The position numbers were made by a program, and so were the translations under genes. DNA of 62,759 bases, the filler included, from Globobulimina sp. (Eukaryota): NCBI GenBank assembly GCA_003354225.1. It is 50 parts of 50 records of this genome, joined end to end, with 100 filler letters (N's around TTAATTAATTAA, not from the genome) between each part and the next. Parts side by side here need not be neighbours in the genome. Positions count along the whole stretch, not along the records: positions 56,580 to 57,735 come from PIVH01022120.1; positions 57,836 to 58,991 come from PIVH01022121.1; 48 more parts are not named here. One strand, given 5' to 3'. Position 1 is the stretch's first letter, and every line of letters begins with the position of its first letter. The notes beneath the pieces are model-generated. The model searched no databases, was not told where the DNA came from, and saw nothing but the letters and a program-made list of their open reading frames with translations. Shown here piece by piece: positions 8,807 through 61,360 of the stretch.

Positions 8807-9964
8807 TGATGGACACAATATCATTATTTTGTTGTATAATAATCATTAAATCACGATCGGATATTAAATATTTCAAAGCGTTCCATAATCTGAACCTAAT
8901 TTGCGTTCTTGATTTTGAACAACGTGCGCAATATAACCATCCTCTTGATACTAAACATGAATTTAAAAATGAATCTTGATCTAAATAGGAAAATATTGTT
9001 TGTCCGATAACATTCAGTGGCTTACTTGGACTCGTACGCGTGCTCGAATTTACACTGGAATTCGAATTTGAGGCAAATATATGTGTAAACTGCGGCAAAT
9101 CAGAGTCATTATAATATTCGTAAAGTGTTGTTAATGCGGGCAAATCAAAGCAATTTGGGTGAGGTTCCATATTATTTAATGTGTGACGAATAAATGAAAT
9201 AATTGCTGTGGATGGTAAATTAAAAGAATTTGACGATATATTATTGTTCATACCGTGTACATGTTTGCTATTTTGTAATTCGAATGGTTCTATTTTTCGA
9301 TGTAACCAATCTGTTACTAATTGTTTCATAATATCTTGAGCGGATATACAATTAATAACTTTTATTAATTCCGAGCAATTTGCTCTTGAGAGGTCACCCA
9401 TAGTTCGATAATATTCCCAAAATGGATCACCAATTGTGGGTGCAAATTCTACTGCGATTAATTGGCTTGATTCATAGGTACTGGCTCTTGATATTCTGTT
9501 ATGCGTTTGATACGGTAACAAATTCCTTAACGAAGAAGTCCGTGGGGTTATGCCGTACGATTGATACGAAGCTGACTGAATGAAGCTAGTAACACTAGGA
9601 GACACAATATCTTTCAATCTGTAGGATGTGTTTCTTTTCATCTTAAAACCATTTAATAACACTGAAGGTGTTGGTTTATGTGTATTTGCTGCTTTGATTA
9701 TATTTTGTTGATATCTATCAATTGTTTTATGGCTTTTATTATTATCAAATGATACGGTTAGAATATCACCGTTTTCATCGACAATCACACTATTTTTCCA
9801 TGAACGGTGATATGATGAATATATTTGTACTTTATCCCCAATGCTCCATTTTTCTCGATGTTGTTCGGATTTTATAACAAATTCTCGATATTTATTGTAT
9901 TCAAATTTAAAATTATTGTTCTGTAATTTTCTTAAATATTGATATTTTATTAATTTATCGATCA
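8807..9964 (-). CDS. Protein with a Tudor/Agenet-like N-terminal module and an F-box-like motif, fragment
   Basis: The ORF is open essentially to the contig end. WSIGDKVQIYSSYHRSWKNSVIV..LTVSFD and IFSYLDQDSFLNSCLVSRGW motifs. Confidence 0.6.
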
Positions 9965-10064
9965 NNNNNNNNNNNNNNNNNNNNNNNNNNNNNNNNNNNN
10001 NNNNNNNNTTAATTAATTAANNNNNNNNNNNNNNNNNNNNNNNNNNNNNNNNNNNNNNNNNNNN

Positions 10065-10156
10065 AACATACTGTGCAACATACTGTGCAACATACTGTGC
10101 AACATACTGTGCAACATACTGTGCAACATACTGTGCAACATACTGTGCAACATACT
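10065..10156. repeat. 12-bp minisatellite (AACATACTGTGC), about 7.5 copies
   Basis: Perfect tandem copies at the contig start. Confidence 0.97.
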
Positions 10157-10638
10157 TGTTGTTAAACATAGACATCGGACACAGTAAATTTATTATACGT
10201 GATGCTATATGTCATGCAACATTACCTTCACTTCAATCTAATGCACCAACAAAGCGTAGGTATATGCGTACCATACATGTCGATGGATGCAAGATTCGGT
10301 TAGAATTAATTACAGCAAATAATAATTGCAATCAAGAAAAATCAAAAGATCCGTTAATTAATATGATTATATTAAATGAATATGATTCGCTTCTTAGAGC
10401 AAATAATACGTGTAAAATGTTATGGAATCAAAGAAATTGTATGAAAAATTGTATGATAGTACAAATTAGAGATTCTCTGCAAAATAAACGACGACGTACT
10501 CATTGTAATACAATTTATAAATTGGCAAAATGTTATAATATTCCATGTATTTCAATTTGTTTTCAAAATGAAAATACAATCACGGATTTATTTAATTTTG
10601 CAATTAAATATTATTGGTTTTGTAATGTCGCACAATAA
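10156..10638 (+). CDS. Degenerate Ras-like small-GTPase-fold protein
   Basis: RYMRTIHVDGCKIRLELI and LAKCYNIPCISIC..ITDLF resemble Ras elements, but G1/G3/G4 motifs are absent. Confidence 0.45.
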   Translation: MLLNIDIGHSKFIIRDAICHATLPSLQSNAPTKRRYMRTIHVDGCKIRLELITANNNCNQEKSKDPLINMIILNEYDSLLRANNTCKMLWNQRNCMKNCMIVQIRDSLQNKRRRTHCNTIYKLAKCYNIPCISICFQNENTITDLFNFAIKYYWFCNVAQ

Positions 10639-47784: not shown

Positions 47785-48150
47785 TGAACAGTGTGTTCCT
47801 CATCAAGAGTTATCAAAGCAGACAAGAATTTACGCCGGTCACCAATAATACAGATCTGATTGATATATTTTGAAGTGGCGATAATCCCTTCGATTCTTGA
47901 TGGAGCGATATTTTTTCCACCGGCTGTGATGATAAGGTCCTTTTTCCGTCCGGTAACTTTCAGGAATCCTTCTGAATCAATTTCACCGAGATCTCCGGTA
48001 AGAAGCCATCCGTCAACAATAGTTTCAGCGGTTTTTTCAGGCATTTTATAATATCCCTGCATGATGTTCGGTCCCCTGAAACATATTTCGCCATCTTCAG
48101 CAATTTTTTGCTCAACTCCTTTCACAGGGAGACCAACCCATCCAAATCGA
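47785..48150 (-). CDS. Bacterial long-chain acyl-CoA synthetase fragment (chimeric with tubulin)
   Basis: [45 protein letters not shown]. Confidence 0.9.
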
Positions 48151-48419
48151 AAGTTATCCGGCCGGAAAATTGCACCAAATGGCCCCGCCCGTACACCATC
48201 CAATGCCCCCGGCTCTAAGTCCATTAATACCGCGCGTGGTACGTAACGGCCGCCGCTTGCTTCGTTATAATACACATTGATTCGTTCGATTTGTAAATCT
48301 GAATCACCGACATATGAGCCGGTTGCATCAATTCCGTGTTCACCACAGATTACTTCCCAAAATTTGGCACCAATTTGATTGCCACATTGCCCTGCTTGGA
48401 TGTGAACAATTTCTCGCAT
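48150..48419 (-). CDS. TUBB: Beta-tubulin, N-terminal ~90 aa
   Basis: [43 protein letters not shown]. Confidence 0.97.
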
Positions 48420-51400
48420 TTTGTATTGGGTGTTTGATAGGTTGGTGATGACTATGGTGCTATGACTGAAAAGGGAATGAGTTGCTGAACGAAGCAATTG
48501 TTGTGAAGAACTAAAAAACTGTATAGTGTATTTTTATAAAGATGTTAATAGTGTATAGTGTATTGGGGCGATAGACCCTTATTCGATGTTAATATTGTTA
48601 ATTTCAATTTTGGTGCAAATAGTAGTAATAGGTGGGTAGGTACTTCTTTTAAAAAAAATAAAAAATAAAAAAAATATTTTTTTTCGAAATATTTTTTTAG
48701 ATTTTTTTTTATCGAAAATTTTCCTAAAGTGATTTACTTAAACGATATATCCCATTAGATAACCCCCCCTTTCAGGCCCTTTGTATACCGAAAATTCAAT
48801 TATAAATTTATTCTGACTTTGTTCTCGATTTGCAAACCCAAGACAAAGTTATAACAAACACAGAACAAACACAAGACAAACATATAGCAAACTGTTTCTG
48901 GATTTTCAAAGCGTTTCTCAGATAATTGAATTAAATGTATANNNNNNNNNNNNNNNNNNNNNNNNNNNNNNNNNNNNNNNNNNNNTTAATTAATTAANNN
49001 NNNNNNNNNNNNNNNNNNNNNNNNNNNNNNNNNNNNNNNNNTTCAAATATTTCTTTAGCGTCGAAATGAACATGTATGCAATTAAGTGCATGCGAAATTT
49101 GACTGCTACTGATTCATATTAAATCGCCAATTATAATTTATAAATTTCATAATTTTATATTGTTTTGCAATCAAAAAGATTTGGAACAATGGATTCCGTC
49201 GATCATAGGTCTTCATGTATTGCAGTTTTGTTTTTTGTGTTTTTATATTCACAGAAGATAATAAATAGTCATTCTGATTAACTGGCAAAGTGTATATGAG
49301 AGTGGCAAAGTGAATATGTGGGTAAGTTCAAATGAATCGATCATAGATTTAACTGAATTTGACTCGTCTTCCAATATTCGGTCACTTTCAATCGTCGGTA
49401 AAAATATTACATTTCAATTTGGTGATTGTCAGTTGCCACAGAGTTTGAAGTATTTGTATATAAAATCTATGTATGGAATATTGGACAAAATATAGATTTA
49501 TTACATATTATAATGGATGAAGCAATGGATATTGAGGATTTTGTCGGATTTCATAACATGGTTATGTTTATTGTTTATGTTTATTGTATATTGTTTATGT
49601 TTAACTGTTTAAAGAGATTTTTATAAACTAATGGTTAATGTGACTTATTTCGAATGTAAGTTGTCAACCGATGCTAGGATTGCATTAAGTTTTATGGGAG
49701 ATTATAAAAATATGTTAAGACAGTTAGGTTGTGCGAATAGAACAAAGTCTAGGTTGAGAATAAATAATGTGAATGCAGTACACACAGCAAGACATATAAT
49801 CATAGATTTCAATCACTCAGATACAGTTATTAACGTGGGAGAGGTCACTGAAGATGATGATTATGTTCAAGTTTGGCCTATTCAAATTAGGATAACAGTG
49901 TTGTGTATTATAGGGCTTATGTTGACAGCAATTGTAAAAGTAATGATAGATTCACAAACATCCTGAATTGCGGGTATCTTTTGTGTGTTGGTTAAGTACT
50001 AGTGTTAAAATACTCGGAATCTGATATATCGGAATCGTCAAACTTTTTTGTGTCGTAAAAATGTCTGTTTTGCAAGGAAGGAAAAATAATAGGCATCGCA
50101 AAAATTCACACATAAAGTTGTTGTCTTTTCATTTCAAAAACTGAACCAGAATTTCTTCCAATTCTTTCATATGTTGCTTGGCAGAGTTGTGCCCCATANN
50201 NNNNNNNNNNNNNNNNNNNNNNNNNNNNNNNNNNNNNNNNNNTTAATTAATTAANNNNNNNNNNNNNNNNNNNNNNNNNNNNNNNNNNNNNNNNNNNNGT
50301 TGTTTGAAGACAGGGTAGTCTGGATGTGGCGGTCCAAATGTATTGATTGGTTGATTGTGCCCAAACAACCAATCAATATGAAACAAGATATCGATATCTT
50401 AAGTGACAAAAAAGCCATCTTTGACCGCCAAGAATATGAATAACTGAACAAAGTGATTTTTTAGATTTAATTTTGAATTTAAAGTGATTTTAAGATTATG
50501 TAATTGAGATTAAAAAATCGCAGAAGTGAAGGCGATGAATCAAGTTATAATTATCATAATTGAAAGTAGAGAAAGAATGATAAATATAACAAAAAATCAG
50601 TGAAAAATATTCAGTAAACATTAATATATATTAATGTGATATTATGCTCAACAAACATTAATTAAATGCTGAAACAATTATAGTTGTAAAAATTAAATGA
50701 GTATATTTCATAAATTATAGGTGTATTGGTTAAATATTTTGCAGCTTTAATAGCTATTAAATAAATATAGTTATCATCATATAAACCACATTTCCATATA
50801 TAAATTAATTCCGTTTTAAATTGCAAATAAATATAATATTTTCCTATAAATTATAATTAAATATCAATATTCATCATTTAATTAAATATAAATAATCATT
50901 TAATGTATCATTTTTTATTAACGTTTTGATAATGCAATGGCAAAACATTGGTAATCTTTTTCTATATTTAGCTTAGAACGGCATGCATTAAAATGTCTAA
51001 GTTTTTAAGTCGAAACTGAAAACAACTTTTGAAAGCTGTAATGATGGTACCTCATGTTTATAAGTACAAGTTATTATTAATTGTTGATAGTAATATTGTG
51101 TTGGTATAATAAGCATTTTTGTGTTGCTTTTTGAATATTGATCGAATGAATTAAATTAAATGAAATGATTCAAATTGGAATGGATCAAATTGAAATTAAT
51201 AATATTGAAGCAAAAAAATAAAATCAAATAAAATTGAATGATTTGAATCAATTAGAAATAAATCAAATGAATTATACTTTGAATAATTAAAATATTAATA
51301 TATATGTATCGGAAAGAATTAAATGAAAGAATTGAATCAAATTGAAATGATTCAGATAATATTGAATGAAATTGTTGATACTATGAAGAAAATAATTGAT

Positions 51401-57659: not shown

Positions 57660-58440
57660 ATATCAGATATACTTTAATTTATTAGTGGATAAATTGTACG
57701 TTTTATACTTTTTTGTATACACAAAAATAATATATNNNNNNNNNNNNNNNNNNNNNNNNNNNNNNNNNNNNNNNNNNNNTTAATTAATTAANNNNNNNNN
57801 NNNNNNNNNNNNNNNNNNNNNNNNNNNNNNNNNNNACACAAATGTCTTATCTATGTTTGGACATGAGTTGACCTTTCGGACGGGATTTCATGATAAGAGA
57901 CTGTTTATGTACAAAGTTTTATTTGGTAACAAGTTTTATATGTAAGGAAATATATGGACAATAACATACAATCATTTCTATCTAAATACATAACAGATTT
58001 GGTAATCTAGTATAAATGAGCCTTTTAAGAACATGATTGTCAATTACATCTGTAGTTGTACAAAGTTTTATTCGGCAAAGAAGTTTTATATGGAAAATAT
58101 ATGTACAATAACATGGAATAAATAGCATAAATAATAATGAATAAAAATAATTCTGTTCAGTAACAGTTTGCACACAAAGGGTTAAATAGAATTGCATATA
58201 ATGCCTATGTACATTTCAACATTGGAATTTATATAATCTCTACAGCACATAACAACTTGCAAACATTTTTCTAATATATATTTATACAGTAACATGTTTT
58301 CACGATACATATGTACACAATATTGTTTTTATTTAGCCTATTATTAGGTTCCATAAACTTATCGGGCTAACACAAACAGACTTTCTAGTTTACAACTGTA
58401 CAAAAATATCTACTGCTACATTTCAACAATTTCTAACAAA

Positions 58441-58991
58441 TTAAGCATTTATGACACCTCCTTCTCCAGCAACAGTGAAGTAGCAATCAAATTGTGTAAA
58501 CAGCAACCCAAACAAGCTTTTCTGAGTTTCTTCATCAAATCCTACCTTGATTGATATATCACCACAATCAGGCATCCTGTCGATAGCGAACAGTCCATAC
58601 TGACCATTAAACTCATAGGAGGTCAAACCCGGAATGCGCCCAGTATTGAACGCGTCAGTGGCTGACTGTACAAATCCAATGTAAGATCTGTTGGCATTTC
58701 CATTGGCGAAGTCTGGTTCGTATGGTTTTTGCAAAATTGGATCATCATATTCAGAGTAAAACTGAACATAGTTGACCTTATACTTGGAAGCAGGATAGAT
58801 CATTGGGTTATTTTCCCATTTATTGCCATAAATGCTTTCTGCCTCACAAATTGCAAAGAAAGCTCGTTTTGGCATTCGTTGTGTGCTTTGAGTGAAGCCG
58901 ATAGATCGCATAAATGTCGATCCTTTTGGGATGGGAAATCTGGTCATGGCAGCCCTGTTTTATCGCCATTCTCGGTCGTTCTGAGTGTATA
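58441..58991 (-). mobile_element. Polinton/Maverick (adintovirus-type) double jelly-roll major capsid protein, C-terminal part
   Basis: Ordered motifs FPIPKG, PKRAFF, GNKWENNP, KPYEPDF..N..RSY, YGLFAIDRMPD, GDISIKVGF, LLFTQFD follow the Polinton MCP C-terminal pattern. In-frame TAA at 58960-58962. Confidence 0.8.
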
Positions 58992-60197: not shown

Positions 60198-60453
60198 TTA
60201 GTAGAACTAGAGAATTTTGTAGATTTTATGAGACGACATAGATTCCGNNNNNNNNNNNNNNNNNNNNNNNNNNNNNNNNNNNNNNNNNNNNTTAATTAAT
60301 TAANNNNNNNNNNNNNNNNNNNNNNNNNNNNNNNNNNNNNNNNNNNNCAAGCAATAATACAACAGAAGTTTATACCAAAACAATTGCAAGTCCGCTTGAT
60401 AGTTTAATAAAAAACATTAACTTGTAGCCATATACGATATAACTTCAATGTGG

Positions 60454-60473
60454 TTATACAATTGTTAGGCATA
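60454..60473 (+). other. attC-like L'/R' end with integron core site GTTAGGC (60464-60470)
   Basis: GTTRRRY lies 18 bp before the first ATG and is complementary to the site after the stop codon. Confidence 0.7.
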
Positions 60474-60487
60474 ATTGGGTGTGCTGC

Positions 60488-61360
60488 ATGAAAAGTAAAA
60501 TTATGAAAGGGAAAGAAATATTTTTAGAAATTTATAATGAGCAAGTTGAGATATTTTATAATTCTTTTGTCAATTCCTCAAGAAGTCTATTTTATAAACC
60601 AGAAAATAAGAATAATCTACATCACGCAGGTGAATTTGGAATTTATAGAGAACGGATTGTTTCAAAATTCCTAAGATTATTTGCACCTCAAAGATTGCAA
60701 TTTGATAGCGGATTTATAATTACACCATTTGATACACCTTCGAAGCAAACTGATATTATAATATATGATAAAAATGAGAGTCCATTAATAAAAAGCGAGG
60801 AAGGTCAGAAATTTTTCCCAATTGAGACTATAGCATCAGTTGGAGAGATCAAATCAGTTTTATCAAAAGAACAATTGAAGGTTGCTCTATTAAATTTAGT
60901 GGCAATCAAAAAACTTAGAGAAAATATTGGCGATAGGTTTAAGTTATACTCAATTGCCCCAAAGGGTATTGATTTAGAAAAGATGCAAACCAAGGAATTT
61001 CCGTTTAATCCAATAAAATATCCTAATGACCACATATGCACATTTTTGATTTGTGAAAACATTAATTTTAACCTAAATGAAGATAATGTTAAAACTGAAA
61101 TTGAAAATTTATATGATAAAGATACGCCAGAAAGACATAAAGTTGATTTTATTCTTGGATTGGAAAACGGATTTATAGGATATTTTAAAAAAGGTTATGG
61201 ATTTTCACCTTTCCCAACAATCGAAGATGGCTTTAAATTAGATATGGTAATGAAAAATGATACAAATAGAGACCACATCAAGCAATTTGTTAATGAAATA
61301 TATAATCGGTTAACAATGACTACTATTTTGAAGCCTGAGATTTCAGATTATTTCAAATGA
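60488..61360 (+). CDS. Bacterial DUF6602-like PD-(D/E)xK nuclease
   Basis: HAGEFGIYRERIVSKFL..GFII..SKQTDIIIYD..P..FFPIETIASVGEIKSVL; intronless. Confidence 0.85.
   Translation: MKSKIMKGKEIFLEIYNEQVEIFYNSFVNSSRSLFYKPENKNNLHHAGEFGIYRERIVSKFLRLFAPQRLQFDSGFIITPFDTPSKQTDIIIYDKNESPLIKSEEGQKFFPIETIASVGEIKSVLSKEQLKVALLNLVAIKKLRENIGDRFKLYSIAPKGIDLEKMQTKEFPFNPIKYPNDHICTFLICENINFNLNEDNVKTEIENLYDKDTPERHKVDFILGLENGFIGYFKKGYGFSPFPTIEDGFKLDMVMKNDTNRDHIKQFVNEIYNRLTMTTILKPEISDYFK

Follow-up and report, generated by a model that had tools for sequence, protein, structure and literature searches.

The window analysed here is a stretch of 62,759 bases from the Globobulimina sp. assembly GCA_003354225.1. It consists of 50 separate contigs of 1156-1158 bp each, arranged in order of length with N/TTAATTAATTAA spacers between them. 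One of them, an entire stand-alone contig of 1156 bp at positions 57836-58991 (PIVH01022121.1), very probably carries on its minus strand the 3' part of a gene for a major capsid protein (MCP) from a Polinton/Maverick-type (adintovirus-like, Preplasmiviricota) element. Since the window joins unrelated contigs, the segments on either side carry no linkage information for the capsid contig. With an overall GC content of 34%, the latter is typical among the contigs of the window, which is itself a sliver of about 58 kb of the assembly.

The coding part of the contig is a C-terminal capsid-gene frame at 58444-58947 (-), which has 168 codons when counted from its methionine as in the ORF (open reading frame) listing, 172 codons from stop to stop and 183 to the contig end when an upstream in-frame TAA is read through as X. 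When the contig was simulated 2000 times with a first-order Markov model, three of the runs contained a stop-to-stop frame of at least 172 codons. A first-pass annotation had described an intronless frame of about 180 codons with a TAA five codons before its methionine and a ~60-bp direct repeat (57908/58058) downstream, and had read it as the C-terminal jelly roll of a divergent Polinton-like MCP in a possibly decaying copy; the frame, the stop and the repeat are all there. The frame closes with a TAA at 58441-58443 (-) that lies within one residue of the ends of all seven aligned relatives, and this coincidence with their C-termini marks it as the genuine stop of a capsid gene. Four frames of the window that run through whole contigs, 385 codons each, are open under the standard code, so TAA is a true stop here. 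An alternative genetic code was rejected for both of these reasons.

Upstream of the methionine codon (58945-58947), 14 in-frame codons reach the contig end (58948-58989 (-), read-through translation), and the translation runs YTQNDREWR-stop-NRAA-M. The stop is a TAA at 58960-58962, the fifth codon upstream of the methionine and 30-32 nt from the contig end. Relatives read ...FPYTQTxMxRFQIP... at this site; the window has YTQ, then nine codons including the TAA, then AAMTRFPIP. The YTQ codons (58981-58989) agree at 8 of 9 nt with L001 and at 7 of 9 nt with L002, two metagenomic loci of the same clade described below. Because YTQ matches the conserved PYTQT of the relatives, we read 58954-58980 as nine extra codons, stop included, that are absent in relatives. 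MAFFT placed the gap elsewhere in a short nucleotide alignment, so the insertion or deletion at 58954-58980 is something that we infer; on either alignment, the TAA falls where relatives have sense codons. A mini-intron around the stop was also considered and is unlikely, as the extra stretch is not bounded by suitable GT..AG sites and the genes of relatives are uninterrupted at this point. One public sequencing run, of DNA or unknown type, holds the contig (half of its words), and no RNA sequencing run is listed as holding it. The contigs of that run span only 57836-57881 and 58070-58689, with two base differences from the capsid contig and one 1-nt insertion in the flank; 58690-58991, with the upstream TAA, lies outside them.

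Beyond the terminal stop, the 3' flank (57836-58440) is AT-rich, with 27% GC against 41% in the coding part, and has no long ORF of note. By blastn neither the flanks of L001-L003 nor the remaining 49 contigs of the window resemble it. It holds the direct repeat, whose copies, found as repeat families D1-D3 and aligned pairwise, lie at 57901-57972 (+) and 58050-58119 (+), about 149 nt apart from start to start. The two copies (~72 nt) match in three collinear blocks, 83-89% identical, and differ by two small indels; slightly wider stretches align at a mean column identity of 84%. Its 20-nt core has 2 matches in the whole window against 0.10 expected, a count reached in none of 100 shuffles, and neither the other 49 contigs nor L001-L003 contain a match to the repeat. 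A single inverted repeat was detected, of 30 nt with 73% complementarity, and it is located inside and next to the coding region. The contig has no Rfam match at E<=1, no tRNA according to ARAGORN and no tandem array according to Tandem Repeats Finder.

The frame is homologous to a very large family of proteins. A search among longer proteins that covered 5.8 billion sequences confirmed 5 matches among 85 candidates: these are proteins of 354-363 aa, 52-60% identical to the window's fragment over 96-100% of its length (E 6e-63 to 1e-47), with cluster mates that reach 399-400 aa. A near-length protein search returned one protein 49% identical and no near-identical copy of the fragment. In alignment A1 of the family, the window's methionine stands at about column 242, the fragment spans columns ~242-411 of 411, and its C-terminal end falls together with that of the family, so that it makes up the last ~40% of the protein. 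From the same A1 position the methionine is an internal conserved residue of the family and thus not a start codon. Run against 1.84 billion representatives, the A1 profile retrieved 3613 at E<=1e-3 (representative clusters at 50% identity), 1420 at <=1e-10 and 30 at <=1e-30; the median length among the family proteins listed is 436 aa. The relation extends to distant members: in a single-sequence search the fragment scored 86.2 bits (E 1e-28, positions 262-431 of 435) against a held-out profile, made of the 94 rows of alignment A2 after removal of the 8 closest. Within the stretch covered it retains all four nearly invariant positions of the family and 17 of the 30 columns conserved at >=60%, at an identity of ~15-26% to most of the more distant members aligned.

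To this family a double jelly-roll (DJR) fold can be assigned from the structure prediction that the first-pass annotation had called for. The AlphaFold2 model, built from an alignment of 102 sequences, is that of P0012, a relative of 444 aa with 37% identity to the fragment; it has a predicted local distance difference test score (pLDDT) of 89.1 and a predicted template modelling score (pTM) of 0.88. Foldseek against the PDB matched it with the MCPs of Singapore grouper iridovirus (E 1e-14) and Sputnik (E 2.5e-14, query TM-score (TMq) 0.64), and further with Vp54 of PBCV-1 (Paramecium bursaria chlorella virus 1), the mavirus and faustovirus MCPs and p72 of African swine fever virus. All listed rows are capsid proteins, and among the 500 best matches 257 reach E<=1e-3. 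In VIA-align the Z scores were 26.8 for the PBCV-1 capsid chain, 25.6 for faustovirus, 24.1 for Sputnik (root-mean-square deviation 3.2, 368 residues), 23.0 for mavirus (361 residues, 14% identity), 22 for vaccinia D13, 16-19 for adenovirus hexons and 16 for PRD1 P3. The full-length model has the two successive jelly rolls, of eight strands each, that characterise the DJR MCPs of Bamfordvirae (Z 22-27 to solved capsid proteins of this kind, over 320-370 residues). The fragment maps to model residues 270-434, from inside the first strand to the last long strand of the second jelly roll. By this alignment to the P0012 model it is predicted to encode the second jelly roll, which agrees with the C-terminal jelly roll recognised earlier from motifs.

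Sputnik V20 (PDB 3j26) and the mavirus MCP (PDB 6g45) have the fold of P0012 across nearly the whole chain, but the virophage capsid chains are 60-70 residues longer and share no sequence similarity with the window family when HMMER is run against PDB sequences. With Z 23-24, these two score on a par with giant-virus proteins in the fold comparison with P0012, and no sequence match to solved virophage proteins was seen. PBCV-1 Vp54, the iridovirus and faustovirus MCPs, adenovirus hexon and PRD1 P3 likewise share the DJR architecture; unlike P0012 they are much larger, bear tower insertions (hexon has ~900 aa), are 8-12% identical and come from other genome contexts. The BFVD ranking is headed by a Cotesia sesamiae bracovirus protein (E 3e-20, 20% identity), followed by an unnamed protein, adomavirus LO7 and a MELD virus protein; rank 17 is taken by an Adintovirus sp. 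protein. The first of these, the uncharacterised protein R9XLG5 of Cotesia sesamiae Mombasa bracovirus, aligns over 402 columns, and its TM-score is only 0.37/0.34 because its BFVD model superposes poorly. A Maverick is said to have been transferred into a Cotesia bracovirus (so the title of a 2011 report by Dupuy and colleagues has it). The MELD virus (E 1.7e-16, TMq 0.59) and Adintovirus sp. (E 6e-14) proteins are 10-11% identical to P0012 in sequence. The hexons of adintoviruses and MELD viruses (Starrett et al. 2021, PMC8502044) are of the same size class, that of small DJR 'hexons'. A genome context was obtained for another branch of the family, not for the window's clade.

That context comes from an IMG/VR scan with a sub-alignment of 15 typical family members, which yielded two contigs, L004 and L005. 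L004 (1-12321, 12.3 kb) holds a nearly complete Polinton-like gene set, all on one strand, with the capsid gene at 9204-10619. According to Pfam its other genes include a 204-aa ATPase (Adeno_IVa2/Pox_A32), a 343-aa integrase (rve and chromodomain) and a 145-aa protease (Peptidase_C5, adenain-like). A 1146-aa ORF contains KLMNNSVYGK and FTDTDS (patterns KxxxNSxYG and DTDS), which we take to be motifs B and C of a family-B polymerase, and a pre-capsid ORF of 255 aa is a candidate penton gene. The 1146-aa ORF has no Pfam, PHROG or PDB sequence match, and the large ORFs of L005 likewise have none in Pfam and PHROGs. L005 has an rve+chromo integrase and an A32-like ATPase. A Polinton gene set of the L004 type was described by Krupovic et al. 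2014 (PMC4028283), and a nematode Polinton preprint (10.1101/2023.08.22.554363) gives the same set. The capsid protein of L004 aligns with the profile of the window's subfamily at an hhalign probability of 98.8% (E 1e-16, 362 columns) and matches L003, L001 and L002 by tblastn (E 8e-30 to 7e-21). Through L004, then, the window's gene has sequence kin among capsid genes that sit inside elements with the Polinton set. Together with the 52-60% identical relatives and the DJR fold of the family, this supports the Polinton-like MCP of the first-pass annotation.

A quick IQ-TREE of 81 rows was made from the best-scoring A1 matches, which biases clade sizes towards the window's side. In it, the fragment nests in clades of 6, 10 and 15 rows with support of 97, 99 and 100 in the Shimodaira-Hasegawa-like approximate likelihood ratio test (SH-aLRT), nearest to P0007 and P0002. 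The 15-row clade stands inside a clade of 30 rows (100), apart from one of 51 rows (100) that holds L004 and L005. The window gene can fairly be described as a divergent lineage of the Polinton-type capsid family; the divergence proposed at first is seen in the separation of the 15-row clade from that of L004 and L005, in the low identity to distant members and in the lack of a Pfam match. The Polinton/Maverick MCP 'PY' described in PMC4028283 is like the window family a predicted DJR protein recognisable only by structure or profile methods. Compared by description, the window clade differs in forming a separate, well-supported branch whose nearest members bear an intron, and in that only the second jelly roll is present here. 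As a lead only, in the ESM Atlas P0007 adjoins clusters named 'Double jelly roll-like domain-containing protein' (recognition 2232, below the 2300 mark). PF21738 (DJR-like_dom) is found on 65% of 99 and on 30% of 233 members in these neighbouring clusters, and their labelled taxa are Preplasmiviricota, Nematoda and Arthropoda, again as leads.

Within the window's own clade a metagenome scan gave only three loci, L001-L003, of 2.2-3.1 kb. Their capsid genes are complete and open, and all three have a canonical GT..AG intron of ~50-70 nt at the same position near the N-terminus. The spans are approximately L001:146-196, L002:506-574 and L003:327-379, with boundaries GTAAGT/GTGAGT/GTATGT ... TGCAG/TGTAG. 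The intron separates a short N-terminal exon from the main body in L001-L003; the capsid gene of L004 is uninterrupted. The earlier description as intronless therefore holds for the 168 codons of the window but fails for the N-terminal part in the loci of all three nearest relatives. A published survey (PMC10120064) assumed that such endogenous viruses are without introns. The window clade, with its conserved spliceosomal intron, would bear on the movement of animal-type Mavericks between distant eukaryotes if its host turned out to be a protist.

L002 also holds a 91-aa open-ended ORF (L002:1-276) that ends ~100 nt upstream of the first exon of its capsid gene and may be a penton-like gene. 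Compared by BLASTP with the 255-aa ORF of L004 it gives E 0.23. Its ESM Atlas neighbours are viral hypothetical proteins, at a low recognition (1968) that makes them a lead only, and one of the Atlas rows listed (3 of the 30 hits) points to a cluster with PF21507, a virophage V18/19-type family (V18-19), on 19% of its members, a weak lead as well. When IMG/VR was scanned for the window clade, none of 181 pattern matches was confirmed with A1 and none of 367 with A8; with A4, from the other branch, none of 52 was confirmed.

We consider it highly probable, then, that a Polinton/Maverick-type element is the source of the MCP gene whose 3' end lies on the contig. The 168 codons that survive would encode the second of the two jelly rolls and would be followed by ~600 bp of AT-rich non-coding DNA; the first jelly roll is missing because the contig ends. 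In an intact element one would expect trimeric, pseudo-hexameric capsomers of the ~440-aa protein to make up an icosahedral shell, and the virion to be completed, like those of other DJR viruses, with a penton protein, a packaging ATPase and a maturation protease. Trimeric pseudo-hexagonal capsomers and icosahedral shells are established for the DJR fold, and it is from this knowledge and from the predicted fold that we infer the role in the capsomer. With the first jelly roll missing, nothing suggests that the fragment functions alone. Because the in-frame stop stands where relatives have sense codons, the window's copy is probably broken and integrated, an assembly error at the contig end being the alternative. 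As a find, a Polinton-type capsid fragment is of an ordinary kind in eukaryotic assemblies: Polinton/Maverick elements are widespread and their capsid genes known, so that one more fragment changes little.

Several observations weigh against this interpretation. The stop and the extra codons lie less than 40 nt from the contig end and outside the public-run contigs, and short-read assemblies err near contig ends. Codon usage of the fragment correlates with that of its relatives at r 0.69 and with that of the pooled other ORFs of the window at r 0.27, which gives no support for a long residence in the majority organism (weakly so, with 168 codons and a compositionally mixed assembly). The fragment has no Pfam or PHROG match at E<=10 and no PDB sequence match with HMMER; profiles A1 and A2 found among PDB sequences, as the best relevant row, adenovirus hexon at a non-significant E of 0.61. 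None of 32 family members matches Pfam at E<=0.01, and at E<=10 Pfam gave nothing for the fragment, P0002-P0006 or P0007, the presence of PF21738 in the Pfam copy used being unverified. The capsid assignment consequently rests on predicted structure and gene context, and the Polinton context is that of the other branch (L004/L005), since the loci obtained for the window's 30-row clade are no longer than 3.1 kb. In L001-L003 the capsid gene is not followed by a long ORF within the 0.6-1.4 kb downstream. Among the 77 ORFs of at least 90 aa in the window's 50 contigs none matches a Polinton hallmark Pfam family, and tblastn with 22 L004/L005 proteins found no credible companion-gene match in the window (0 of 21 non-capsid proteins), the only row against a window contig having E 0.03 over 35 residues. 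The 1.16-kb contig bears no host junction, terminal inverted repeat or companion gene. As the window is a 58-kb sliver of the assembly, the missing companion genes say little. Source names for 15 family representatives are absent or 'hypothetical protein'. A curated profile for this very large family of ~440-aa proteins, missed by Pfam, PHROG and PDB sequence searches, would improve the annotation of endogenous viruses.

Of the other explanations, the one that survives best concerns the host. The contig may derive from an animal or another eukaryote that was sampled along with the main organism, as prey, symbiont or contaminant, and that has Mavericks in its genome, a serious possibility that we put somewhat below an even chance. 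Bellas et al. 2023 (PMC10120064) found Maverick-Polinton-type capsid genes almost only in metazoans, and the ESM Atlas neighbours of the window family are arthropod and nematode clusters. Codon usage is nearer to the relatives than to the pooled window ORFs, and third-position GC (GC3) in ten window ORFs with Pfam support varies between 0.12 and 0.64, a heterogeneous composition that suggests more than one organism or a very uneven genome. Against this, the GC content of the contig is the usual one for the window, and rhizarian Polintons are on record, so that the family type leaves a protist host possible and not wholly unprecedented. PMC10120064 also reports capsid genes from the wider Polinton-like supergroup, in their thousands, for the rhizarian Paulinella micropora. 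A 2019 preprint (10.1101/809541) on this rhizarian amoeba describes both 'metazoan-type' and 'rhizarian-type' Polintons in P. micropora, and lists Reticulomyxa filosa in the legend of its figure on Polinton divergence times. A literature search for Polinton with Foraminifera and for Maverick with Reticulomyxa returned full-text co-mentions only, never in a title or abstract. A co-sampled animal host and a protist host are about equally possible.

Rather unlikely, in our estimate, is a more specific version with a non-animal host, in which the fragment belongs to a distinct intron-bearing Maverick/Polinton clade of, for example, a rhizarian or foraminiferan protist, its capsid gene being spliced by the host nuclear machinery. 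If true, it would extend the animal-dominated cluster of Maverick-Polinton capsids to a new host group or record a transfer between animals and protists.

We give a similarly low chance to an exogenous replicating Polinton-like or adintovirus-like virus, or an intact episomal or integrated copy, in which the upstream stop is an assembly or sequencing error. The 168 codons are without stops or frameshifts and keep the nearly invariant residues, the stop lies so close to the contig end and beyond the public contigs, and the capsid genes of the nearest relatives L001-L003 are complete and open; the sole defect that would speak for the decaying copy proposed at first is that stop 30 nt from the end, and the remaining codons are intact. 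What speaks for a broken copy nevertheless is that about nine codons around the stop differ from relatives, more than one base error would account for. In addition, at least 600 bp of non-coding, repeat-bearing AT-rich DNA after the gene is loose for a compact virus, and scans of the IMG/VR viral collection with window-clade profiles returned no match.

Improbable is a domesticated cellular gene, intron-bearing and derived from a capsid protein, that stands outside any mobile element. The GT..AG intron shared in position by all three nearest loci and the lack of a long ORF in the 0.6-1.4 kb downstream of their capsid genes would suit it. However, the L002 ORF ends ~100 nt before the first exon of the capsid gene, a virus-like spacing; the many diverged members of the clade in metagenomes (50-60% identity) are what a spreading element would leave; and the window copy has an in-frame stop. 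Finally, a chance ORF with a fortuitous resemblance of motifs, for which one could cite the AT-rich contig and the lack of a curated family match, is refuted by the E of 6e-63 reached with full-length relatives and the 86 bits scored against the distant-member profile, and has practically no chance of being right; the 3 of 2000 simulations also speak against it.

The rest of the window is largely made of ordinary genes. Among the 77 ORFs of all 50 contigs, 26 match Pfam at E<=0.001, nearly all as ordinary eukaryotic genes such as RCC1 repeats, G-alpha, formin FH2, HAP2/GCS1, CAP-Gly, PARP, G-patch and DnaJ. A contig with 29% GC contains, at 60443-61357 (+), a 305-aa frame with a match to DUF6602 (E 4e-21); DUF6602 is mostly prokaryotic, and the frame could be a bacterial contaminant or a transferred gene. 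At 47787-48533 (-), one frame combines a weak match to the Tubulin/FtsZ GTPase domain (E 4e-17) with AMP-binding_C_3 (E 4e-6), an odd pairing that may reflect a divergent tubulin-like protein or a frame crossing two genes. The open frame that fills a whole contig at 36473-37627 (+) matches HAP2/GCS1, the gamete fusion factor, with E 1e-84, and the main organism therefore has a conserved sexual fusogen.

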